Source: Promethearchaeota archaeon
GTDB lineage: Archaea > Asgardarchaeota > Lokiarchaeia > Sigyniarchaeales > SOKP01
Assembly: GCA_016839765.1 (NCBI GenBank)
Contig: JAEOTP010000076.1
Location: forward strand, 1-27,666
Length of the DNA: 27,666 nucleotides
Direction of reading: 5' to 3'
In this document: piece by piece, positions 8,671-27,666 of the stretch
Position numbering within the stretch: the first letter of the stretch is position 1
How the letters are laid out: every line of letters starts with the position of its first letter
Program-made: the position numbers and the translations under genes
The notes under the pieces: generated by a model
The model's input: the letters and a program-made list of their open reading frames with translations, nothing else
Told to the model about the DNA's origin: nothing
Database searches by the model: none

Positions 8671-9489
8671 ATGCCGTATGCTGAAATTAATGGAATTAAA
8701 ATATATTATGAAATTCATGGTGATGGATACCCTTTATTCATGCTTCATGGGTATGGTGCTACGAATAAAGTATGGATTGGTCAAGTTGGTGCGCTTTCTA
8801 AACATTTTAAAGTCATAATATATGATCACCGAAGTAGTGGTAAATCTGATCACCCTAATGAAGATTATACATTAGATACATTGGTAGAGGACTTAAAAGG
8901 GTTGATGGATTTTCTTGAAGTTGATAAAACGCATCTTATGGGTCAATCCATGGGTGGATGGATCTCTCAAAATTTTACTTTGAAATACCCTGAAAAAGTG
9001 AACAAACTTGTATTATTAGGAACAAATCATAAAGGTTCTGGCTTACCATTGCTCAGAGATAATTTAACTGAGCTTTTTGAACTTGCAAAAACTAATAAAG
9101 AAGAAGCTTTTTGGAGATATGCTAAATTAATGCATCATAGAAGATTTATAAAAGAGATGCAATCAGATCCAAAGAAGAAATTTTATGGATTATGGTCAGC
9201 GGAAGATTTGATAGAAGAATTAACAGAAAATCAAATGACTCCAGAAGATTATCAGAGATTTGAAAAGGCTGGTTCCATGCATACTGTTCTAGACCGTTTA
9301 TCTGAAGTAAAAAATCCTACGATAATAATTGGGGGTTCTAATGATAGAATGTCTCCAAAAATGGTTTTGGATGAAATGCATGAGAAATTGCCTAATAGCA
9401 GAATCGAGATTATAGAAAAAACAGGGCATCATGTTTTTATAGAAGAAGCACTCAAAGTAAATGAGCTTATAATCAATTTCTTAAAATAA
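8671..9489 (+). CDS. Alpha/beta hydrolase
   Basis: HGYG oxyanion motif, nucleophile elbow GQSMGG, Asp in GSNDRM and His in TGHH. Confidence 0.92.
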   Translation: MPYAEINGIKIYYEIHGDGYPLFMLHGYGATNKVWIGQVGALSKHFKVIIYDHRSSGKSDHPNEDYTLDTLVEDLKGLMDFLEVDKTHLMGQSMGGWISQNFTLKYPEKVNKLVLLGTNHKGSGLPLLRDNLTELFELAKTNKEEAFWRYAKLMHHRRFIKEMQSDPKKKFYGLWSAEDLIEELTENQMTPEDYQRFEKAGSMHTVLDRLSEVKNPTIIIGGSNDRMSPKMVLDEMHEKLPNSRIEIIEKTGHHVFIEEALKVNELIINFLK

Positions 9490-9539
9490 TAATTTTAAAC
9501 ATTTTTTTTAATTTAAGATTGAAGTATCAGGTTTTTGGG

Positions 9540-10169
9540 ATGGTTTTGTGTCGTTTTTTAGGAAATGCGTGCATAGAGTTAATTGGAGTAAAAGACCATA
9601 TCATTGTTGATCCTGTATTTTTATCTTCTCCTCGAAAAGGAATTGAACGGATTCTTATTACCCATCACCATCAAGATCATATTGAGATAAGTAAAATAAA
9701 AGAGATTGAGGAAAAATTTTCAGTAGAAGGGAGAGAGCTTGAGATATATGGCCCAGAATGCTTATATGAAGAGCTGAATGTTGAGTTTATTTTAATAATT
9801 CCTGGTTTTAAGATATCATTACATAACGGCGAAATTGAAGTATTTGAAAATGATTGTTGGAAAGCAGAGGGCTGTATAGCTTACTTAATCTCAATTGACA
9901 AAAAGAAAATTTTGCATACTGCTGATTCGGCTATTTTTTCATCTGCATTGAGGACTCTTAAAAATCAAATTGATCTGTGTTTTGTTGCTTGTTTTGAGGA
10001 AAATTTTGAAGATTATCTCAATTTTATAAAAGAAATTTCTCCAAAACAAGTAATTCCATATCATTTTTCAACTGAAAAAGAACAAAATGGTAAAAACTTA
10101 AGTAAATATTTAAAAGATAATGGTTTTAATTCAATATTCCTTTCGATTGGTAAGGAGATAGAACTATAA
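9540..10169 (+). CDS. MBL-fold metallo-hydrolase (UlaG-like)
   Basis: FLGNACIEL, IVDP, ITHHHQDH, LHTADS and VIPYH. ATG at 9540 is preferred (TTG at 9519 is an alternative). Confidence 0.8.
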   Translation: MVLCRFLGNACIELIGVKDHIIVDPVFLSSPRKGIERILITHHHQDHIEISKIKEIEEKFSVEGRELEIYGPECLYEELNVEFILIIPGFKISLHNGEIEVFENDCWKAEGCIAYLISIDKKKILHTADSAIFSSALRTLKNQIDLCFVACFEENFEDYLNFIKEISPKQVIPYHFSTEKEQNGKNLSKYLKDNGFNSIFLSIGKEIEL

Positions 10170-12754: not shown

Positions 12755-13546
12755 TTAGTATGGGTCTAGTTTTATAAATGAATATGGCTCGAATTGTTCC
12801 TGTTCTATTTCAGCTACGATTTCTCCTGGTTGCATTTGACTATTACACTTTAAATACATACAACCAAGCAATCTTTCTACTTCTAACTCGCTCCAAGGAT
12901 CAAATTTAGATTCATTTAATTTCACTTCAGCTTCACCCATGAGAAATTCAGATGCTTGCATTTTTATTTCTTCTCTCACTAAACGTGGATTGTAATCAAA
13001 CCCTTCATAAAGTGGTGACCTAAAATATTTATAATTGTAAGTGGTGCTCCCTGGTTTATTTGGGTCTAATCCTAAATCTAATGAAATCTTCAAGGCATCT
13101 TTTTCATTTAGTTTGTTATTAAGTTTCGCTTTTAATTCAAAATATTTTATTCCATGTCGTTCGACCCATCCTTCGAAGTTTTTTTCATCCTTTTTAAAAT
13201 GTATATTCGCCATTTTTTTTGGATAACCAAATACTTCTCGTCCTCCAATCATTGCCATATCTTTATCTACTGGCATTGCAAGACAGTAAGCCCCAATTAC
13301 ACCATCATATTCTCCAAACAAAAAGAGAGCTGCTTCTTTATAAACTACACCAAAATTTGTTCTAGGGTAATTGGCAATCATAGCCTGTACTACTGGATAT
13401 TTAACTGGTTTTAAAGGAGGTGGAAGTAAATGTTTAACTATTTCTGGTTTAGTCTCCCAAAATACAGTCAGAAATTCTGCATCATAAAAATCAAATGATG
13501 TTCTTCTTAATTCTTCTAATTCTTTTGGAGTTTTTACAAAACCCAT
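12755..13546 (-). CDS. Acetoacetate decarboxylase-family protein
   Basis: LLPPPL, YKEAALF and the Schiff-base Lys motif GGREVFGYPKKMA. Confidence 0.88.
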   Translation of the reverse strand: MGFVKTPKELEELRRTSFDFYDAEFLTVFWETKPEIVKHLLPPPLKPVKYPVVQAMIANYPRTNFGVVYKEAALFLFGEYDGVIGAYCLAMPVDKDMAMIGGREVFGYPKKMANIHFKKDEKNFEGWVERHGIKYFELKAKLNNKLNEKDALKISLDLGLDPNKPGSTTYNYKYFRSPLYEGFDYNPRLVREEIKMQASEFLMGEAEVKLNESKFDPWSELEVERLLGCMYLKCNSQMQPGEIVAEIEQEQFEPYSFIKLDPY

Positions 13547-13708
13547 TATAATTCACTTTTTTTATTGAAAATCGATTAATAAAATATGTAATTTGGTTAT
13601 TTAAAAAATTATTGTAAATTTATTTTATTTAAGTTATCCTTTTCATAAACTTTTATTAGTTCACAGAATCTATTTTATAATTATTAAGTGAATTGTGAGA
13701 GCATAAAG

Positions 13709-15238
13709 ATGTCAACAGTTAAAGAAGCATATAAGGAAATTGAGAATATTATAGGTTCAGAATATATTTCTGATAAAGATTTTATGAAAGCTGCTTATTC
13801 TAGAAATGTAGATCCAGCGTTTCCAGATAGGTGGGCAGATATGATTGTAAGGCCAGAAACCACTGAACAAGTTTCTGAAATCGTAAAGATCGCTAACAAA
13901 TTTAAAATTCCCATGGTTCCAAGAGGAGGCGGAGCAGATTTAGTGGGTGGCTCAGTAACAAAAGGAGGAATTCTTATCGATCTCACCAGAATGAATAAAA
14001 TTATTGAAATCAATGAGGATGATTTTTATTGTGAGGTTGAATGTGGAATTACTTGGGGAAATTTAGTCTCAGAATTACACCAAAAAGGTTTAACAACGGG
14101 CGTTCTTGGTCCGGGAAGTGGGTTCTCGGCAACTATAGGCGGTGGTCTTTCAAATAGTACTGCTGGTTTTGGTTCCACCAAATACGGAGTTGTGCCTGAT
14201 ATTTGTTTGGGAGTAGAAGTAGTTTTACCTAATCCCCAAGGTACCATTATAAGAACAGGTGCAGCAGCTAATAAATATGCAAACCCTTTCTGCAGATATG
14301 GCGTCTCTCCTGATTTTACTGGACTTTTTATGGGAGATGTGGGCACAATGGGCATCAAAACTAAAGCTTTTTTAAAATTGTTTCCAAAAACTCCTTATAA
14401 AGCACAAAGATATTATATGCTTAACAAAAATGATTATAATAAAGTTGTGGATTTGTTATATAAGCTAAGGAGAGAAGTTCGGGATGGATTGCACGATGTA
14501 CTTGTTGTTCCTTTAGCCTTATTACAAATCTTGTCTATGATGGTTGAGAACAAACCTGCAAAAAGGCCAAGATTAAAAGGGCCTGTTTTTTCAATCTTGG
14601 TTGAGGCAATGGACCAAGGTATCTTAGATCTACATCTAAAGAAAGTTTCTGAAATAATGGAAAATGATACTAGATCGTTTGAATACCAAGAAATGGACTT
14701 AGATGCGCCCCTCTCAAAAGATTGGAAGTTCAACTTAAAATATGCATACAATTATTTTAATAAATATATCTCAATTGTACCACCTAAAATTTCTTGTACA
14801 ACATGTCATAAGATTCCTATCTCAGAAATTCCAAAAGCAGCACAACTAAGTAATGAATTTGATATTCAAAATAAAGGTGAATTTCCATCACAGAGTATCT
14901 CTTTATTTGCTACGGTTATATTTCTTATGCCTAATGGTCATTGTGTTATTGTAGGGGGATTTAATGCTGATAATATAGATGAACAACGCGAAATTTCCAT
15001 GAAGATGTGGCACAAAAAATTAAGAAATCAAGTTCGGTATGGTGGGGTTCATTATTGGCTTGGGGAGGCTATTTCCCAATCTATAGTAGAAGCTGATGCA
15101 TATACTCCCGAATTTGTACAATTTTTTAAAGATATGAAAAAAGCAGTGGATCCCAATTTTTTATTAAGCCCAAATAAGTTCCATATGTATAGTTATAATG
15201 ATGATATCACCAAATATATAATCAAAAATGAAGAGTAG
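13709..15238 (+). CDS. FAD-binding oxidoreductase (GlcD/D-lactate dehydrogenase, VAO/PCMH family)
   Basis: IVRPETTEQVSEIV, PRGGGADLVGG, DLTRMNKI, ATIGG, KYG, GTMGIKTKA and DPNFLLSPNK. ATG at 13709 (GTG at 13688 is an alternative). Confidence 0.9.
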   Translation: MSTVKEAYKEIENIIGSEYISDKDFMKAAYSRNVDPAFPDRWADMIVRPETTEQVSEIVKIANKFKIPMVPRGGGADLVGGSVTKGGILIDLTRMNKIIEINEDDFYCEVECGITWGNLVSELHQKGLTTGVLGPGSGFSATIGGGLSNSTAGFGSTKYGVVPDICLGVEVVLPNPQGTIIRTGAAANKYANPFCRYGVSPDFTGLFMGDVGTMGIKTKAFLKLFPKTPYKAQRYYMLNKNDYNKVVDLLYKLRREVRDGLHDVLVVPLALLQILSMMVENKPAKRPRLKGPVFSILVEAMDQGILDLHLKKVSEIMENDTRSFEYQEMDLDAPLSKDWKFNLKYAYNYFNKYISIVPPKISCTTCHKIPISEIPKAAQLSNEFDIQNKGEFPSQSISLFATVIFLMPNGHCVIVGGFNADNIDEQREISMKMWHKKLRNQVRYGGVHYWLGEAISQSIVEADAYTPEFVQFFKDMKKAVDPNFLLSPNKFHMYSYNDDITKYIIKNEE

Positions 15239-15249
15239 GGGAGAAACTT

Positions 15250-16464
15250 ATTACTGAATTTAATCCTAAAGAAAAATTTAAGCATTTAAGTAAATTTGGA
15301 AACACTCTCCTTCAGTGTATAAGTTGTGGTGATTGTAGAGAAGCTACAGATTACACAGCAAACCCTCAAAAATGGGGAGTATGTGTAGCTAGAGACCACA
15401 CATCTGGGTTTGAACCCTTCTTTGGTAGAGGAAAAATGCAAATTATAAGATCACTTTGGCAAGGGAAATTAGAGTTAAGTAAAGATATGGCAGAAGTCAT
15501 TTATCAATGTCCTACCTGTAATGCTTGCGCAGAAGCGTGTGCTTATGAAATGGATAATGCACTTATGTATGAGGCACTAAGAGCAGAATTAATTGATGCT
15601 GGTTGTGGATTAGAAGCGCACATTCCAATGAATAAAGCTATGGTTGAGTTGTTGAATCCCTATGAACGTGATAATAAACAAAAAAACGAGTGGATTAGCA
15701 AATTAGATTTTGAAATCAAGGATGCGTATTCTGAAAAAGCAGATGTATTATTTTTTGTTGGATGCACAGCCGCTTTAACTCCTGAAATCCAAACTGTGGC
15801 AATAAACACAGCAAAAATTCTTAAAAAATTAAATGTTGATTTTGCAGTACATGGGGAAAAAGAAGTTTGTTGCGGAAGCGTGGCATTAAGGACAGGGAAT
15901 TGGGAGGCGTTTAATTCTGTAGCCTTAAAAAACTATGAATTATTCAAAAAGAGCGGAGTTAAGACAATCATAACAAGTTGCGCTGGTTGTTATAGGACTT
16001 TAAAAGTCAATTATGCTGATTTTCTTGAAGATTTAAATATTAAAGTACTACATACAGTAGAATTTATTAGAAATTTTATAGAGCAGAATGATATTGAAAT
16101 GAAACAATTTGGGATTAATGTAACTTATCATGATCCGTGCCATACTGGAAGAAATGCTGGTGATACACCGCTTTATGAGGAACCCCGAGAGTTATTGAGA
16201 AAAATTGCGAATTTAGTTGAAATGAAAACAATTAAAGAAAATTCAAAATGCTGTGGTGCTGGCGGTGGTGTAAAGAAAGGATTTCCGGATCTAGCTTTAG
16301 AAATAGCAAAAAGTAGAATAAGAGAAGCAGAGGCAACTGGAGCAGAATATATTGTCAGTATCTGCCCTTTTTGTTATAGAAATTTATCGGATGCAATTAA
16401 AGCTCTCAATTCTGATATCAAAATGGCAGATTTGACCGGATTAATTAATAAAGCTTTAGGTTAG
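15250..16464 (+). CDS. Fe-S oxidoreductase with 2x[4Fe-4S] and two CCG domains (HdrD/GlcF/GlpC-like); probable ATT start
   Basis: The in-frame region upstream of ATG 15436 encodes the first cluster motif (CISCGDC...C...GRGK). It is followed by CPTCNACAEAC, FFVGC, CCG, SCAGC, YHDPCH, CCGAGGG and CPFC. Confidence 0.88.
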   Translation: MTEFNPKEKFKHLSKFGNTLLQCISCGDCREATDYTANPQKWGVCVARDHTSGFEPFFGRGKMQIIRSLWQGKLELSKDMAEVIYQCPTCNACAEACAYEMDNALMYEALRAELIDAGCGLEAHIPMNKAMVELLNPYERDNKQKNEWISKLDFEIKDAYSEKADVLFFVGCTAALTPEIQTVAINTAKILKKLNVDFAVHGEKEVCCGSVALRTGNWEAFNSVALKNYELFKKSGVKTIITSCAGCYRTLKVNYADFLEDLNIKVLHTVEFIRNFIEQNDIEMKQFGINVTYHDPCHTGRNAGDTPLYEEPRELLRKIANLVEMKTIKENSKCCGAGGGVKKGFPDLALEIAKSRIREAEATGAEYIVSICPFCYRNLSDAIKALNSDIKMADLTGLINKALG

Positions 16465-21276: not shown

Positions 21277-21513
21277 TTATTTGACTGCTTCAAAATATAT
21301 ATACCAGACTTCATCATCTTCTAGATAGTCTGTTCCTAAATGCTTGTGTTTTGTTTTGGCCAGATCACGTGGAACTGATTCACTTGCTGGTTTATAATCC
21401 GTAATTACCTTCAAAACCGTTCCAGGTCTCATTTTCATAAGTTGTTTTTTTGTTTTAAGTGCCGGTACAGGGCATACTAACCCACAAACATTTAATTCCT
21501 GATCAAAATTCAT
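21277..21513 (-). CDS. tusA: TusA/SirA-family sulfur carrier
   Basis: LNVCGLVCPVPALKTKK...GTVLKVITD; AAGGAG ribosome-binding site upstream. Confidence 0.88.
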   Translation of the reverse strand: MNFDQELNVCGLVCPVPALKTKKQLMKMRPGTVLKVITDYKPASESVPRDLAKTKHKHLGTDYLEDDEVWYIYFEAVK

Positions 21514-21545: not shown

Positions 21546-24014
21546 TTAGGTACATAATATTGAAAATAAAGGCTCATCCATTTCAGGTTCTGCTTTAATT
21601 TCTAACTGCATTAACTGAGCTAACCTAAGAGCTTCATATCTTACTTTCTTAGGATCAAGACCGGTTTGTTGAGCAATATCAGTAATAGTACTTGGACCCT
21701 GAAGTGAAATATAATCTAAAACTTGCTGTCTTGGAGTTTTTTCAAAGTTCATTAGTTCACGTTTTGATTTCAGGTTAATCGCATTTTTTATCTCTTCTTC
21801 ATTAGCTTCTCTTTGTTCAAACAAACCTTTTTCAATTGCTTGATCAACGAGCGTTTTACCCCGTTCTGTCCAAGCAATTACTGTTGTATAACCCTCTTTT
21901 GAACCAACTTCACCAGCAGTGAGATCTGAATATATTGCTGGAAAATCTTGACAATGAGAACAGAAATGGTTGCAACTTAGACATCTTCGTGCTTCTTGCA
22001 ACGCCATATCTTCGTTGAATATTTTATCAATTTCTTCAAAGGTCCAGTTTATTTCTTCAGTAGCTTCTTCTAAAGTTTCTGGTTTTAATGAATAATCTTT
22101 TGGAGGCTTTTTAGGCCCTATAAAAAAGGCATTCTCTTTTTTATATCTTCCTTCAATTAAATTTTCTCCTTTCAAATATCTGTCAATTGAGATTGCTGCC
22201 TCCTTTCCATGAGATATTGCGGCAATTGCTACAGCTTTAGAGTTATTGATGATATCTCCACCAGCAAAAACTCCTGGAATGTTTGTTTCGAATGTGACTT
22301 CGTTTACTTTAATTTTATTTCGCTCTTTTTCTAATTTTTTATTGGTAGCAGCATCAATCTGCTCAAAATCTACAGCTTGACCAACCGCTATTACAATAGA
22401 ATCAACGGGTATTTCATAATCTGAACCTTCAAGCTCATTTAATGGTTTTCTCCCGTTTTCATCAGGAGCGCCCCATTCGATATGATAACAGTTCAAAACC
22501 AGCTCACCTTTGTCGTTCTGAGTAACTTTTGAAGTTGATGTAGTGAAATGATATTCCATAAATGCTATTTCATTTTCAGGAATATCTTTTATTACCAATT
22601 CGAGTTGCTCTCCTGACATGATATCAACAAGGTGGATTTTTTCAGCACCTAATCTAAGAGCAGTTTGAGCAACATCAACAGCAACAGGACCACCACCGAT
22701 TATGCCTAAGGTCTTTCCTTTGAACTCTTCCTTATTTTCCCAGAATCGATATTTTCTATCCATTAAGAAATTAATTGCTACATACACATCTGGTAGATTT
22801 TCTCCTTCTAAATGTAAGGTACGAGGTTTATACTGTCCAGTTGCAATAAAGATGGCCTCAAACCCATCATTTTTTAAATTATCAATAGACATTTCAGGGC
22901 CTAAAGGCTTATTGAGTACAACTTCGACACCAGAATCTACAATCCTACCTACATCATAATCTAATACATAATTTGGTAATCTAAATTGTGGTACACCGAA
23001 TCTTAGCATTCCTCCAGTTTGATCTGTCTTCTCAAAAATTGTGGGAGCATAACCCATTCTCCTTAAGAAATATGCCGCTGTTAATCCAGCTGGTCCAGAT
23101 CCAATAATTGCTACTTTTTTGGCATTTTTAATTAATTTAGCTTTTGTTTTTGAAGTGTTTTTTGATCTTTCAATTTCCCATTCGGTAACAAATTTCTTTA
23201 ATTCACGAATTGCAACAGGATGATCATCTCCAATTAAAGTGCAGCCATGTTCACATTCATTTGTACAAATTCTTCCACATATAGAGGGAAGTGGATTTCT
23301 TTCTCTAATTAGGTCTACCGCGTCTTGATATTTCCCTTGACGAATTAATGAAATATATCCTTGAGCATTAACACCAGAAGGACAGCCACTGCAACATGGA
23401 GAACATATTAATCCTTTATCTGTTTGTTCAGTTCTCATTTGAGAACTACAGAACAATCCAATTTTTAAAATTTCTCGATTCATATCTTCTTCAAGTTCAG
23501 CAGCTCCACGCATTTCACATGGCACACCGACAATACCAATTGGATCAAATGTTTCACCCGTGAGTTCTACTAATCTTTGTAGGACGCCAGATCTACCATA
23601 AATAACACCAGCTTTTTGAACTACTTCATTAGGATCTGAAACTATTTCAGCGGTAGGTTTCTCATCTTCCTCTTGAACCATAACAATCTCTTTTAGAGAC
23701 TCGTTTTCTAATAATTCTTTCGCAAAAGTAGTTACAAATCCTCCACTTGAAGCCTTAGCTAATACTTTAGGATCTTTGCTCCTTAAAGAATAAATGGCGA
23801 GAGGTTGCTTCTCTTTAAATTTCTTTTGGATTACTTGGGGGCAATTCTGATAACATTTTCCACAAGCTTGTCCATCTCTTTCCAAAATACAATAATCTTT
23901 CAATGTGGGACGTCTAACTTCCATTTCAATATGCTTACACGAGCCAGCACATAATCCACATCCTTGACAAAGACCAGCATCTACAATTTCTTCTCTTAAT
24001 AATTCAAAACTCAT
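21546..24014 (-). CDS. Ferredoxin-FrhB (F420-binding) protein with an inserted GltD/NfnB-type FAD/NAD(P) oxidoreductase and C-terminal HTH
   Basis: Ferredoxin CQGCGLCAGSC/CGKCYQNCP. FrhB motifs SSGGFVT, GIVGVPCE, KIGLFC, and later CSHCQDF...SDLTAGEVGS..GYTTV. GltD motifs PCCSGCP, CGRICTNECE, IIGSGPAG, GGMLRFGVP, IGGG, FAGGD and EARRCLSC. Confidence 0.85.
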   Translation of the reverse strand: MSFELLREEIVDAGLCQGCGLCAGSCKHIEMEVRRPTLKDYCILERDGQACGKCYQNCPQVIQKKFKEKQPLAIYSLRSKDPKVLAKASSGGFVTTFAKELLENESLKEIVMVQEEDEKPTAEIVSDPNEVVQKAGVIYGRSGVLQRLVELTGETFDPIGIVGVPCEMRGAAELEEDMNREILKIGLFCSSQMRTEQTDKGLICSPCCSGCPSGVNAQGYISLIRQGKYQDAVDLIRERNPLPSICGRICTNECEHGCTLIGDDHPVAIRELKKFVTEWEIERSKNTSKTKAKLIKNAKKVAIIGSGPAGLTAAYFLRRMGYAPTIFEKTDQTGGMLRFGVPQFRLPNYVLDYDVGRIVDSGVEVVLNKPLGPEMSIDNLKNDGFEAIFIATGQYKPRTLHLEGENLPDVYVAINFLMDRKYRFWENKEEFKGKTLGIIGGGPVAVDVAQTALRLGAEKIHLVDIMSGEQLELVIKDIPENEIAFMEYHFTTSTSKVTQNDKGELVLNCYHIEWGAPDENGRKPLNELEGSDYEIPVDSIVIAVGQAVDFEQIDAATNKKLEKERNKIKVNEVTFETNIPGVFAGGDIINNSKAVAIAAISHGKEAAISIDRYLKGENLIEGRYKKENAFFIGPKKPPKDYSLKPETLEEATEEINWTFEEIDKIFNEDMALQEARRCLSCNHFCSHCQDFPAIYSDLTAGEVGSKEGYTTVIAWTERGKTLVDQAIEKGLFEQREANEEEIKNAINLKSKRELMNFEKTPRQQVLDYISLQGPSTITDIAQQTGLDPKKVRYEALRLAQLMQLEIKAEPEMDEPLFSILCT

Positions 24015-24016
24015 CC

Positions 24017-25252
24017 TTATCCCTCTTTAATTTTAATTTCTTTTACAATACCAATTGGATCAATTGTAAATTCAACTGAACCATTCTTATATGTTCCTTC
24101 GACCACCTCAAAAACGTGGCTTTTATATTCTTCAAAATCATCATTATCATCAATTTGTGACCTAAATCCTCCAAAGAATACATTGGATAAATTCATGTTT
24201 CCAGCAATTTTACGAATTTCTTTAGTAATTTTCTTATATTGTTCTGGATCCTTACTCTGAATTGTTTTTTGAAGTTCATCTTCAAATTTTAACAATTGTT
24301 TTCGATAATTTTTAGCCTTTTCACTTAATTCAATATTATTAGCTTTTTCGTAAGATTCGATTATTTTTAGTGTTAATGAGATTGAATGATCTCCCCCTAA
24401 TAACCCAGAAATTAAAGGTAATTCTTCAATAAGCCTTCCTGTAAAAACATCCTCTAATAAGTTACCATTTGAAGGAATTCGACCTTTTGGTAATCCTGAT
24501 GTTGATAAAGTAAATCTAAAGAAATTACCTACTATATCGGGTACCCTTTCAGTTACATCATCATCCTTGTCTGCTAATTTATCAGTTGCTCCTTTTTCAG
24601 AATGTTCAGTTGCAACTTCAATATTTCCCATAAGAGTTCCAAACATTCCTAACATTCTGATCCCAGAACGTTCTATAATTGGTTTACAACCTCTACATGG
24701 AGCATTATAGTCAATACATCGTTCTTTACATTCTCTTGAGACAAAACCATTACAAAGATATCCGAGATCGTTAAAACATGTCTCAGTATCTTCTAAGTCA
24801 ATTTGCCGTTTTACGTCATCTAAGTAATCACATGTTTTTCGCCTTCCGCATACAATACAGAGATTTTTTAAGTTTGGGAGATCAGCCTCTTCAATCTCTA
24901 GTTTTAATTCTTCAATTTCCCCTAAGCAACCATTAATACTAATTGAACCTTCAATAATTTTATTTAAAGGAGTTACTTCATGACCTTTTTGATTAGCAAG
25001 AGCAAAAATCCCTCCAGTTGTAGCACAGTTTCCATAAGCAATCACTTTTCCTGAATTTGTTCTAATTTTATTTAAAGTATTCTTATTCTCTGGTAGTAAA
25101 AATCCAGTGATTATTGATACATCAGTCTTTTCTTCTTTCCAATTTTGAGGATCTTGTATAAATTCTACTTTATATTTTGATTCTCCCTTTAAGAGAATCG
25201 TCTCATAAAAGCATTTATTACATCCGTTAAACTGGAATATTCTAACATTCAT
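24017..25252 (-). CDS. MvhG/HoxY-like [NiFe]-hydrogenase small-subunit homolog with C-terminal extension
   Basis: GCNKC, YGNCATTGG, NGC, LCIVC, CFNDLGYLCNG, RCIDYNAPCRGC and PDIVGNFFRFTL, then about 160 extra residues. Confidence 0.78.
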   Translation of the reverse strand: MNVRIFQFNGCNKCFYETILLKGESKYKVEFIQDPQNWKEEKTDVSIITGFLLPENKNTLNKIRTNSGKVIAYGNCATTGGIFALANQKGHEVTPLNKIIEGSISINGCLGEIEELKLEIEEADLPNLKNLCIVCGRRKTCDYLDDVKRQIDLEDTETCFNDLGYLCNGFVSRECKERCIDYNAPCRGCKPIIERSGIRMLGMFGTLMGNIEVATEHSEKGATDKLADKDDDVTERVPDIVGNFFRFTLSTSGLPKGRIPSNGNLLEDVFTGRLIEELPLISGLLGGDHSISLTLKIIESYEKANNIELSEKAKNYRKQLLKFEDELQKTIQSKDPEQYKKITKEIRKIAGNMNLSNVFFGGFRSQIDDNDDFEEYKSHVFEVVEGTYKNGSVEFTIDPIGIVKEIKIKEG

Positions 25253-25694
25253 CTTTGAAAGTCCCCTCCTCTCTAATTGCAGTTGCTAATCGTTCTACAA
25301 TATCTTCAAAATCTCCGACAGCTGTTTCTCCTTCGGCAGCTCGAGAAGTATATTGATTAACAAATTGATCACTATAACCTAACTCTTTAAATAACTTTTT
25401 CATTAATTTTATTCTATGCATTGATAAAATATTCCCATTAAAGAAATGACATGCCCCTAAACAGCAGCCAACGCACGCAACTGCGTCTGCTCCATTGCTT
25501 AAGGCATCCATAATTTGAATGGGACCAACTTGACCAGTACATTGTACTCGAACTATCCGAATTGCAGGATTATAAGCCATTCGAGCTACGCCAGCTGTAT
25601 TTGCTGAACCTTGCCCACATTCATTGCACATAAAAATTACAATATTTTCCATCTTTTCAAGTACTTCTGGTTCAATATATTCACATTCACTCAT
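25242..25694 (-). CDS. mvhD: MvhD/FlxD [2Fe-2S] subunit
   Basis: IFMCNEC, IRIVRVQCTG and GADAVACVGCCLGACHFFNGN. ATG at 25694 overlaps the hdrA end and follows GGAGGTG. Confidence 0.88.
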   Translation of the reverse strand: MSECEYIEPEVLEKMENIVIFMCNECGQGSANTAGVARMAYNPAIRIVRVQCTGQVGPIQIMDALSNGADAVACVGCCLGACHFFNGNILSMHRIKLMKKLFKELGYSDQFVNQYTSRAAEGETAVGDFEDIVERLATAIREEGTFKDEC

Positions 25695-27666
25695 TTTCGC
25701 ATACAGCACCTCCGCCTGATATTGCGATTATTTCATCTAATAGCTGTTCATCACTAAAATTTAATAATTGTATTGCTCCTGTGGGACAAACAGGCATACA
25801 CATACCACAGGACTTGCAAGCAATTTCATTTACCATAGGTGTTCCATCATCATTAATTTCAATTGCAGCTGGAGCACATACAGTTTTACATAGTCCACAT
25901 CTAACACATAAATCGTAATCTACCGTAGGAACTAACATTTCTTTTTCGATATAACCTTTAACTAATGGAGCCGCTGCTATTGCTGCGGCATTCCCTGCTT
26001 GAGCAACTGATTCTGAAATGTCTTTAGGACCTTGAATAGCTCCCGCTAAAAAGATACCTCCTTTGCTACTTAATGTGGGGTTCATTTTAATATGAAATTC
26101 CTTAAGAAAACCTTCTTTTGAGCGAAGTACATGTAATTTTGACCCTAAAGGTCCGATGCCTTCAGGGGGTACCATCGCTGCTGAAAGTACGACCATGTCC
26201 GCCTTTAATTTTAACGGCGTTTGACTAAGAGTATCTTCGACTATAACTCTCAATTCTCCAGAAATAGGGTCTCTGAGAATCTCTGATGGACGTCCTCTAA
26301 TAAATCGAACACCTACCTCTTGAGCAGATTTATATAATTCTTCAAAGTTTAAACCAGGAGTCCTCACATCAATATAGCAGATAGTAACATCTGAATCGGG
26401 ATACATTTCTTTAACAATTCGAGCATTTTTAATTGCAAACTTACAACAACCTCCTGTACAGTATTGATTCCCTACTTGATCATTTCTACTTCCTACACAT
26501 TGTATCATTACAATACTTTTAGGAATTTTAGCATCAGAGGGTCTTAATACCTGACTGTTAGTAAGAGAACCGGGAGCTAGCATTCTTTCTAATTTGAGTT
26601 GTGTAATTACATCTTCATATCCTTCTTGACCATAATGGTATGGTTCAATTTCAGAGGGGTTATACTCATCATAACCCGCTGCGACAACAATAGAACCGAC
26701 TTTAAAGGTTTTTGTTTCGGTTTGCATTGAAAAATCTACTGCTTGTACAGGGCAAACGTTAATACAAGTATTACACTCAATACAGCTTTTTTTATCTCTC
26801 ACATACGTAGCGGGAATTGCTTGTGGATAGGCTTTATAAATTGCATTTCTCACTGACATACCACTATCCCATTCACTAGGTACCTCCACAGGACAGTGTA
26901 GGGCGCATTCACCGCAAGATGTACAGTTATCTTTGACATATCTTGGTTTAATTTCAACCTCAACTTCAAAATTACCCATTGAACCCTCTACACTTTTAAC
27001 TTGAGCATTAGTATAGAGTTCTATTAATGGATGATTAGCTACACCATTAGTTAATGGAGATATACTACATTGAGGACACTCCAATGTCGGGAATGTCTTA
27101 TTTAATTGTGTCATATGTCCCCCGATTGTAGATAATTTTTCTACTAAATAAACTGGAATTCCTAACTCAGCTAAATCATATGACGCACGAAGCCCTGCGA
27201 TACCAGCACCAATTACTAATGCAGCTTTCGTTGTAGGAACTCTCCGTGTCTCAACATCTTCTAATTTTCGTGCTCTATTTACTCCAGCTTCTACTAACTT
27301 CTTTGCTTTTTCAGTTGCTTTATCTTTTTCTTTCTGATGCACCCAACTATTATACTCTCTAATATTTACTTGTTGGTGTTTATGTCTATTAATTCCCATT
27401 TCTTCAATTGCTTTAGCAAAAGTCCTACCATGCTGATTTTTTGAACATGAAGCCACCACTGTTCTATTGACATCGAATTCTTCAATAGAATCTTTGAGCA
27501 TTTGTACTCCAGGTTTTGAACACATAAACATATAATGTTCAGCTTTAACCACGTTTGGTAAATCTTTAGCATAATCTGCTACTTTAGCAACATCGACGGT
27601 ACCAGCAATATTATGACCACAATGACATACAAAAACTCCTATTCTGGGATCTTCTTCTTTTTTATC
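25687..27666 (-). CDS. hdrA: Heterodisulfide reductase subunit A (5' end outside window)
   Basis: The frame is open from the window edge: DKKEEDPRIGVFVCHCGHNIAG...MFMCS, NIRE, VIGAGIAG, GGHMTQLNKTFPT, an inserted ferredoxin, QCVGSR, YCTGGCC, YIDVRTPG, GPKDI and a C-terminal 2x[4Fe-4S] ferredoxin. Confidence 0.95.
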   Translation of the reverse strand, partial: DKKEEDPRIGVFVCHCGHNIAGTVDVAKVADYAKDLPNVVKAEHYMFMCSKPGVQMLKDSIEEFDVNRTVVASCSKNQHGRTFAKAIEEMGINRHKHQQVNIREYNSWVHQKEKDKATEKAKKLVEAGVNRARKLEDVETRRVPTTKAALVIGAGIAGLRASYDLAELGIPVYLVEKLSTIGGHMTQLNKTFPTLECPQCSISPLTNGVANHPLIELYTNAQVKSVEGSMGNFEVEVEIKPRYVKDNCTSCGECALHCPVEVPSEWDSGMSVRNAIYKAYPQAIPATYVRDKKSCIECNTCINVCPVQAVDFSMQTETKTFKVGSIVVAAGYDEYNPSEIEPYHYGQEGYEDVITQLKLERMLAPGSLTNSQVLRPSDAKIPKSIVMIQCVGSRNDQVGNQYCTGGCCKFAIKNARIVKEMYPDSDVTICYIDVRTPGLNFEELYKSAQEVGVRFIRGRPSEILRDPISGELRVIVEDTLSQTPLKLKADMVVLSAAMVPPEGIGPLGSKLHVLRSKEGFLKEFHIKMNPTLSSKGGIFLAGAIQGPKDISESVAQAGNAAAIAAAPLVKGYIEKEMLVPTVDYDLCVRCGLCKTVCAPAAIEINDDGTPMVNEIACKSCGMCMPVCPTGAIQLLNFSDEQLLDEIIAISGGGAVCENE

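Follow-up and report, generated by a model that had tools for sequence, protein, structure and literature searches.

Here, we describe P0001, a gene in the genome of a Promethearchaeota archaeon from the Lokiarchaeia (GenBank assembly GCA_016839765.1), located on contig JAEOTP010000076.1, of which a stretch of 27,666 nucleotides was analysed (hereafter, the window). The gene lies on the reverse strand at positions 21546–24014 and its open reading frame encodes 822 residues plus a stop codon, with no internal stops. In the encoded protein, a flavoprotein cassette of the GltD/NfnB type is nested inside an FrhB domain, and the gene belongs to an operon with hdrA, mvhD, an mvhG-like gene and tusA. 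The features along P0001 are as follows:

21546–24014 (−): whole gene, in the order ferredoxin, FrhB(N), GltD/NfnB-type cassette, FrhB(C), winged-helix-like tail
23820–23987 (−): N-terminal 2x[4Fe-4S] ferredoxin domain, residues 10–65, with C16/19/22/26 and C42/51/54/58
23580–23792 (−): FrhB_FdhB_N, residues 75–145 (Pfam 52 bits, motif tables)
23418–23540 (−): first piece of FrhB_FdhB_C, residues 159–199 (profile positions 4–48 of 150, 24.7 bits)
21972–23405 (−): GltD/NfnB-type cassette, residues 204–681, with predicted sites for two [4Fe-4S] clusters, flavin adenine dinucleotide (FAD) and NAD(H)
22617–22706 (−): dinucleotide site, residues 437–466, GGGPVA and then strand beta2 ending in HLVD464IMS
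21954–22043 (−): junction, residues 658–687, EARRC678LSC681, three residues from the FrhB ligands C685-x2-C688
21798–21965 (−): second piece of FrhB_FdhB_C, residues 684–739 (profile positions 78–149), with AGE702VGS replacing G-S-[VI]-G-S
21549–21794 (−): C-terminal winged-helix-like tail, residues 741–822, aligned in cassette-free relatives too

Domain architecture and insertion point

Both domains of the family that includes FrhB, FdhB, FpoF and Fsr-N (PF04422 and PF04432) score above their Pfam gathering thresholds in P0001, with 47.7–52 bits for FrhB_FdhB_N (cut-off 22) and 68.9 bits for FrhB_FdhB_C, which matches in two pieces (cut-off 23.3). The FrhB_FdhB_N region carries the SSGG motif for FAD and reads GV[IV]YGR where a [ST][KR]Y loop is usual. 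The FrhB_FdhB_C match is broken, about 25–30 profile positions being absent; its first piece carries the cluster ligands C166 (GVPC) and C189 (GLFC), and the second match spans residues 664–739 approximately. Between them, Pfam places Fer4_20 at residues 205–283 (74.6 bits) and Pyr_redox_2 at residues 299–603 (97.6 bits), and the NCBIfam model PRK12771 matches residues 198–688. At the N-terminus, the Fer4 matches to residues 10–65 are sub-threshold, and this region aligns to residues 4–57 of Fsr (7np8_A); a 2x[4Fe-4S] ferredoxin domain at this end is also found in FpoF and Fsr-N. All 20 cluster cysteines of P0001 are invariant in 38 orthologs sharing 44–90% identity, among them C166/189/685/688 of the FrhB part and C207/211/246/250/254/258/678/681 of the cassette.

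In the FrhB of M. marburgensis, the [4Fe-4S] cluster is bound by Cys104, 134, 192 and 195, and the 57 residues between Cys134 and Cys192 fold as a three-stranded sheet whose only conserved element is the turn 163-IGKGK, adjoining the F420 ring; S209/V210 are also in contact with F420, and the residues located at the FAD are K75-Y76 (Mills 2013, PMC3591093). In the paper on the Fsr structure the ligand pattern was given as PC-X40-C-X54-C-X2-C and the segment in between was named the "lid". P0001 keeps the PC...C...CxxC pattern (P165-C166, C189 and C685-x2-C688, invariant in the 38 orthologs), but ligands 2 and 3 are separated by 495 residues versus the usual 54–57, the lid of about 55 residues being exchanged for about 490 residues of GltD-type sequence. 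P0001 is, therefore, a true domain insertion between the second and third cysteines of the FrhB cluster, C166 and C189 preceding the insert and C685 and C688 following it, and not an end-to-end fusion. At the junction, the arrangement C678-x2-C681-x3-C685-x2-C688 places four ligands, two from the cassette and two from the host, in a stretch of 11 residues and, because of this proximity, the sequence predicts that a cassette cluster should adjoin the host cluster.

The structure of P0001 was modelled with AlphaFold from a 76-sequence alignment including cassette-only and cassette-free relatives. A first model, based on the 38 close orthologs only, had a predicted local distance difference test (pLDDT) of 70, a predicted template modelling score (pTM) of 0.54 and values below 50 in all Fe-S loops, and was replaced. 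The final model reaches a pLDDT of 86 and a pTM of 0.76, with low confidence only in the linkers 192–203 and 630–637. Compared as one unit, residues 1–757 superpose on the FrhB-type subunit 8riu_B with a VIA Z of 29.5 (277 residues, root-mean-square deviation 3.0 Å), on 8rja_E with Z 27.6 and on Fsr (7np8_B) with Z 24.4, so that the host part matches FrhB-type modules at Z 24–29.5 over 253–277 residues; against FrhB itself (9r51_B), Z is 22.7 over 232 of 282 residues. Therefore, the model has both FrhB halves folding together into one FrhB fold from which the cassette is an excursion. The cassette region (residues 189–685) superposes on NfnABC (9bov_A) with a VIA Z of 41.0 (root-mean-square deviation 2.9 Å, 447 residues) and on StnC (8oh5_C) with Z 39.6.

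These results agree with an earlier note, made from the sequence alone, which had described a whole GltD/NfnB oxidoreductase splitting the cluster ligands of an FrhB domain. The motifs it named are found where it placed them (with LKIGLFC ending at nucleotide 23448, CSPCCSGCP beginning at 23405 and EARRCLSC ending at 21972), and the split FrhB_FdhB_C match flanking Fer4_20 and Pyr_redox_2 that it anticipated was recovered, the C-terminal segment aligning to this profile at positions 78–149 with 50.8 bits. The superposition of the FrhB halves on F420-oxidoreductase modules supports it as well, and the single-chain two-flavin layout it proposed stands, both flavin modules looking intact. The assembly chimera that it considered, and likewise a pseudogene, can be ruled out since the stop-free architecture is kept in more than 120 sequence clusters at 90% identity and in 44 of the 68 genomes sampled from the same family.

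The C-terminal tail is modelled with three helices followed by two beta strands (pLDDT 82–95). Its Pfam match to HVO_A0114 stays below the cut-off (20.6 bits), and several helix-turn-helix (HTH) families match with E-values of 0.01–0.1. A winged-helix domain (DUF7347, 46 bits) also opens an HdrA::MvhD fusion on contig C33 of the same genome (L005:2198–4744, −). In this lineage, such domains may recur on redox subunits as modules for docking or regulation.

A permuted cassette and two divergent substrate sites

Among solved structures, the best relatives of the cassette (phmmer, residues 200–684) are 9n5u_A (1e-86), 9bov_A (6e-82) and 8oh5_C (1e-76), that is, the NADPH domain of the Bfu-type NfnA and StnC rather than canonical NfnB. 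In canonical GltD/NfnB, the EAxRCLxC motif opens Fer4_20, whereas in P0001, StnC and Bfu-type NfnA it comes after the Rossmann domains. Accordingly, the Fer4_20 profile is matched in reversed order along the P0001 chain, positions 30–111 at residues 205–283 and positions 4–35 at residues 658–687 (E 2e-4); the cassette is therefore circularly permuted. The C-terminal EAxRCLxC motif is also present across 145 cassette homologs. The eight Fer4_20 ligands (C207/211/246/250/254/258/678/681) are all invariant in the orthologs, as are the FAD motif G305-x-G307-P-x-G310, the segment G334-G335-M-L-R-x-G-x-P-x-F-R-L-P and the C-terminal G585-G586-D587. Since C207/C211 and C678/C681 are contiguous in canonical GltD, the ends of the cassette should meet at one cluster, and this predicted geometry suits insertion.

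The StnC of Sporomusa ovata StnABC (8OH5) and the NfnA of Bfu-type NfnABC (9BOV, 9N5U/9N5V) contain the same permuted cassette in the same order, with CxxxCP and Cx3Cx3Cx3C, then the FAD and dinucleotide Rossmann domains, and EAxRCLxC last. Their cassettes share 31–35% identity with that of P0001 (VIA Z 39–41 over about 450 residues). In Stn, the cassette is a non-bifurcating NADPH input from which electrons are handed to a separate bifurcating module (PMC10482914). The surroundings differ, as the StnC/NfnA cassette sits between [2Fe-2S] and NuoG/FdhF-like domains, and that of P0001 inside an FrhB fold. Among representative sequences, further hosts are HdrA-like, Fer4+CCG (HdrD-like) and [2Fe-2S]/NuoE-like proteins, and others. 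This permutation suggests a general rule for the recurrence of the cassette as an insert in HdrA, HdrD-like, StnC and NfnA proteins.

In HdrD-like proteins of about 920 residues from related genomes (e.g., G174:C27:3871–5322; P0132), the cassette is flanked by a Fer4 dicluster domain on one side and by two CCG domains on the other. These paralogs are the closest relatives of the P0001 cassette (54–57% identity) and are possible donors of the insertion. The genome of P0001 also contains, on contig C13, a 1648-residue open frame with a cassette of 41% identity.

The substrate sites of both flavin modules depart from their families. In the GltD/NfnB/DPD-N family, the signature xxYRR[ST] indicates NADPH, the arginine pair binding its 2'-phosphate, and in Rossmann folds generally an acidic residue at the end of beta2 goes with a preference for NADH, although exceptions exist. 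In our alignment of 145 cassette homologs at the dinucleotide site, most read xxYRR[ST] and a minority xxCLE. P0001 reads LVDIMS there, after the second Rossmann motif GGGPVA; strand beta2 covers residues 459–463 in the model and ends in D464-I-M, so that Asp464-Ile-Met occupies the 2'-phosphate site where the NADPH-binding StnC/NfnA cassettes have YRR. D464 is conserved in at least 90% of the orthologs. Because it replaces YRR, the Rossmann rule indicates that the main clade of P0001 orthologs prefers NADH. One ortholog with 55% identity (P0125) reads MVEIRN, and the basal P0126 (45% identity) keeps VIYRRS, from which we infer that the nucleotide preference changed, within the family, from NADPH to NADH.

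In the host part, the F420 contacts of M. marburgensis FrhB are replaced, namely the lid sheet including the IGKGK turn, the small residue at position S209 and the loop of K75-Y76. The IGKGK lid is absent in every ortholog, including P0125 and P0126; the K75 position is V or I in every ortholog (motif G-V-[IV]-Y-G-R, with R141 invariant); and the S209 position is always E or D (E702 in P0001; motif A-G-[ED]-x-G-S). The host pocket is thus remodelled and its use of F420 uncertain. The genome does make F420, with profile matches over the cut-off for cofD and cofG. The co-occurrence of cofD was considered as an indicator of F420 use and discarded, this gene being present in 99 of the 101 family genomes with or without P0001.

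An internal comparison comes from contig C33 of the same genome (L005:7589–11264, +), where an NfnA-like gene (295 residues, DHODB_Fe-S_bind) is followed by a Fer4-FrhB-NfnB fusion of 928 residues. Like P0001, it joins both families in one chain. In contrast to P0001, the fusion is linear, an NfnA partner adjoins it and no Hdr lies next to it on its strand; it has TKY, a DKGR turn, GSIGS, an intact lid and an unbroken FrhB_FdhB_C (profile 2–149), a canonical unpermuted NfnB (Fer4_20 profile 1–112), and an N-terminal extension of about 110 residues without known fold. It is a second, independent joining of the FrhB and NfnB families in one genome, possibly an F420-linked Nfn. Beside it lies a conventional mvhA-mvhG-hdrA::mvhD cluster (L005:147–4744, −), together with an Mpt_N gene (methylene-tetrahydromethanopterin dehydrogenase-like) (L005:6506–7501, +); therefore, the genome has both hydrogenase-linked and hydrogenase-free Hdr systems.

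Distribution and cassette-free relatives

The P0001 architecture is conserved in a single Asgard order. Clustering at 90% identity divides the proteins that have it into more than 120 groups, which are all about 820 residues long and labelled as Lokiarchaeota/Promethearchaeota or other Asgard archaea; at 50%, only three clusters hold the full architecture. Besides the 44 genomes of its own family, the full-length form is present in two of the seven genomes sampled from a second family of the order and in one further genome with 9% contamination; it was not found in the remaining genomes of the 301 sampled from the phylum.

When the N-terminal 200 residues of P0001 were searched against shorter proteins, two kinds of cassette-free relatives were found. 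The first kind, short forms of 366–399 residues, shares about 70% identity with both host halves of P0001. One is encoded at L039 (G065:C4) 8890–10029 (−), and further members are P0284–P0312. Between ligands 2 and 3–4 they retain 57–76 residues containing seven cysteines, enough for one extra cluster. Two cassette relics can be recognised in this stub, namely R-C-G-C-T-L-I-G..E-L-K, which in P0284 is identical to residues 255–284 of P0001 at 19 of 28 positions, and D-G-K-R-C-x-S-C ahead of C-x-H-C. With its four extra cysteines, the stub probably retains one cassette cluster. In a tree on 348 shared columns, rooted on the 345-residue forms described below under the assumption that these are ancestral, the short forms are one clade with a Shimodaira–Hasegawa-like support of 0.998, nested inside the long forms through nodes with supports of 0.93–0.997, P0125 and P0126 being basal. 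Because of this nesting and of the relics they carry, the sequences identify the short forms as secondary deletions of the cassette. In a genome of the same genus that is 100% complete (G065), a short form occupies the slot of P0001 in an operon that is otherwise 81–97% identical.

The second kind consists of 345-residue forms from another Asgard family (loci L047–L049; genomes G055, G075 and G005), with just 18 residues between ligands 2 and 3 and thus neither lid nor cassette. They have the same winged-helix tail as P0001, read G-F-A-G-S at the position equivalent to S209, and sit in an hdrC-hdrB-hdrA-mvhD-mvhG*-X-tusA-dsrEFH cluster, where mvhG* is the mvhG-like gene and X the slot of P0001. 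Both cassette-free kinds keep the host FAD motifs (SSGG, Y139-G-R141 and AG[ED]xGS). The host of the cassette is a module of the FpoF/Fsr-N type, with a 2x[4Fe-4S] ferredoxin domain, FAD and one [4Fe-4S] cluster. Its subfamily lacks the lid, carries the winged-helix tail and fills this slot of the operon in two Asgard families or more.

Operon context and proposed function

The genes flanking P0001 in the window are the following:

25687–27666 (−): hdrA (P0004), its 5' end cut by the contig end (HdrA2 model, 739 bits)
25242–25709 (−): mvhD (P0003), 155 residues (FlpD, 110.5 bits)
24017–25252 (−): mvhG-like gene (P0002), 411 residues (Oxidored_q6, 51 bits; VhuG, 4.8e-13)
21277–21513 (−): tusA (TusA, 67.8 bits), 32 nucleotides downstream of P0001, closing the conserved cluster

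P0001 and these genes overlap or are spaced by 2 to 32 nucleotides, the stop of the mvhG-like gene lying 2 nucleotides before the start of P0001. Of 12 related loci, 11 share the order hdrA-mvhD-mvhG*-X-tusA, with the identity of X down to 51%, and tusA is conserved in all 12. In related genomes where DNA is available upstream of hdrA (e.g., L017), tusA-dsrE-dsrF-dsrH-dsrE2-hdrC-hdrB is found there. P0001 is, in this way, encoded with hdrABC and mvhD, as are the donor modules of the Mvh, Fdh and Elp types, and no gene of its type was found outside an Hdr operon in the loci examined. P0002 is a homolog of the small subunit of [NiFe]-hydrogenases, and no large subunit adjoins it: the two large subunits of the genome are encoded on different contigs, where each is paired with a small subunit of its own. 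Nor did the operon genes scanned include an NfnA-like gene, whose product (FAD plus [2Fe-2S]) takes the high-potential electron in bifurcating NfnAB, or LbpA-type sHdr genes. The MvhG-like protein has a C-terminal extension of about 200 residues without Pfam match, conserved with the operon at 35–90% identity across families.

Together, these observations point to P0001 as the electron-input (dehydrogenase) subunit of a hydrogenase-free HdrABC-MvhD-MvhG-like bifurcating complex, a reading to which we assign a probability of roughly 0.55. HdrABC complexes bifurcate electrons from H2, formate or F420H2 in methanogens and from NADH, through Flx, in bacteria. In the proposed mechanism, a cassette would have been inserted at the host cluster in the Loki-type lineage as an NAD(P)H port and later retuned to NADH; NADH would be oxidised at the cassette FAD, and HdrA would pass electrons to ferredoxin and to HdrBC, whose substrate would probably be a disulfide or persulfide on the co-encoded TusA/DsrE proteins. 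The host FAD site would be an older, second port, for which F420H2 is possible even though the canonical F420 contacts are gone, and one sublineage would have removed the flavin part of the cassette again. The operons of the cassette-free forms contain no other candidate for the donor subunit, so that a separate substrate is probably still accepted at the host FAD site, and a dual-input module fits better than a dead scaffold or a free transhydrogenase.

Several points weigh against this electron-input role. The putative NADH preference follows from the beta2 rule with its known exceptions, and cofactor content, complex formation and cluster-to-cluster distances are predicted. For bifurcation, NADH (about −320 mV) is weaker as a donor than H2; if the acceptor is a persulfide, the reaction may lie close to equilibrium or be reversed. 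This reading accounts for the role of neither the host FAD nor the winged-helix tail.

The alternatives differ in what they make of the two flavin sites. If the host FAD/F420 site were dead or structural, the cassette would be the sole substrate site and the FrhB fold a scaffold and wire. The loss of the canonical F420 contacts would suit such a cofactor swap, and non-catalytic scaffolds have precedents in the ElpA of Elp-Hdr (PMC12350162) and the FdhF-like part of StnC (PMC10482914); nevertheless, the 345-residue and the 366–399-residue forms keep the host FAD motifs as the only candidate donor of their operons, which makes this explanation unlikely, although it comes closest among the alternatives. 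The same complex could also run in reverse (confurcation), with reduced ferredoxin and thiol or persulfide oxidation driving NAD+ reduction, in settings such as sulfur-compound oxidation or amino-acid fermentation. Hdr-type bifurcation is reversible and NADH a weak donor, and sHdr systems with TusA/DsrE are reported to oxidise sulfur (PMC11094781). Nonetheless, the sequence sets no direction, and HdrABC is here of the methanogen/MvhD type, with no LbpA-type sHdr genes among the operon genes scanned; we regard reversal as improbable.

The earlier note had offered two functions, an F420H2:NAD(P) transhydrogenase or a dual electron-input module, and it is the electron-input part that fits best. 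A free-standing transhydrogenase would oxidise F420H2 at the FrhB FAD and pass the electrons through three [4Fe-4S] clusters to the cassette FAD and NAD(P)+, or the reverse. The linkage of two flavin modules by adjacent clusters is what such an enzyme would need, the potentials of F420 and NAD are nearly equal, and the genome encodes cofD and cofG; however, cofD is near-universal in the family and does not discriminate, the gene is confined to the Hdr operon in the loci examined, the IGKGK turn and lid are replaced and the K75 and S209 equivalents changed, the dinucleotide site reads as the NADH and not the NADP type, and the slot is also filled by cassette-free forms, for which a transhydrogenase function is impossible. 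This function is, therefore, very improbable. Even less credible is a redox-sensing transcription factor binding DNA through its winged-helix tail, as the weak HTH matches and the three-helix, two-strand topology could suggest, since these matches are below threshold, the gene lies among, and at short distances from, others that encode enzyme subunits, and the winged-helix domain on the HdrA::MvhD fusion of contig C33 suggests docking instead.

The electron-input reading finds parallels in several known systems. In the Elp-Hdr and Fdh-Hdr complexes of methanogens, an FrhB-type subunit plus MvhD feed HdrA (PMC12350162), and ElpB/FdhB (8RVU, 7BKB) is, as P0001, an FrhB-type donor beside MvhD and HdrABC; their scaffold partner is a truncated FdhA, in contrast to the MvhG-like protein of the P0001 operon. 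The FrhB-type subunits of the F420-reducing carbon monoxide dehydrogenase and Fmd of Ca. Ethanoperedens (8RIU, 8RJA), Fsr-N and FpoF resemble P0001 in combining the FAD/[4Fe-4S] module with extra ferredoxin clusters. All these proteins, ElpB/FdhB included, use F420H2 and have retained both the lid and the contacts to F420, whereas P0001 lacks the canonical contacts, and none of them has the inserted flavoprotein or the winged-helix tail.

An HdrA with an inserted NfnB/GltD domain has been reported as "HdrA9-11" of ANME-1 (PMC9012536) and as "type III HdrA" (PMC12054007). As in P0001, a protein of the Hdr system has a cassette of about 500 residues inserted between its Fe-S motifs, for which the role of a pyridine-nucleotide port is proposed, but there the host is the ferredoxin domain of HdrA (in ANME-1 and Bathyarchaeia) and here an FrhB-type donor of Asgard archaea. 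FlxABCD-HdrABC of Desulfovibrio has been proposed as an NADH-dependent Hdr (Ramos et al. 2015, doi 10.1111/1462-2920.12689); it shares with the P0001 system an MvhD-like subunit and an acceptor of the sulfur-carrier type (DsrC), but it is bacterial and its NADH-binding FlxA-C are unrelated to P0001. FGltS, putatively a glutamate synthase that depends on F420 (PMC3448663), was considered and set aside, as its FrhB homologs and GltS catalytic subunits are separate chains in another architecture. A full-text literature search retrieved no published FrhB with a nested GltD/NfnB module, although absence there is no proof.

Taken jointly and only tentatively, since we hold this fuller scenario to be somewhat doubtful, P0001 would be the donor subunit of a sulfur-carrier-linked, bifurcating Asgard Hdr carrying a plug-in NAD(P)H cassette whose ends are brought together by circular permutation at one Fe-S cluster; after its insertion, the cassette would have shifted its preference from NADPH to NADH, and one sublineage would later have trimmed it to a single-cluster stub. 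Through P0001, archaeal HdrABC would acquire a direct port for pyridine nucleotides of unusual construction, in which a complete flavoenzyme is nested between two of the ligands of a single Fe-S cluster. If this is true, Loki-type Asgard archaea, whose redox and hydrogen metabolism figures in models of eukaryote origins, would gain an NADH-driven route to reduced ferredoxin without hydrogenase, and the lid-less, cassette-bearing and cassette-deleted forms would illustrate, as a natural series, how flavin-based electron bifurcation switches between donors. The NADPH-type, NADH-type, lid-less and cassette-deleted forms in an otherwise identical operon would likewise offer a natural experiment on the exchange of donor modules.

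Elsewhere in the window, about 5 kb from the operon, lie genes for an acetoacetate decarboxylase (12755–13546, −), a GlcD-like FAD_binding_4 protein (13688–15238, +) and a CCG-domain HdrD/GlcF-like protein (15436–16464, +), and this group may represent a separate dehydrogenase of the lactate/glycolate type.

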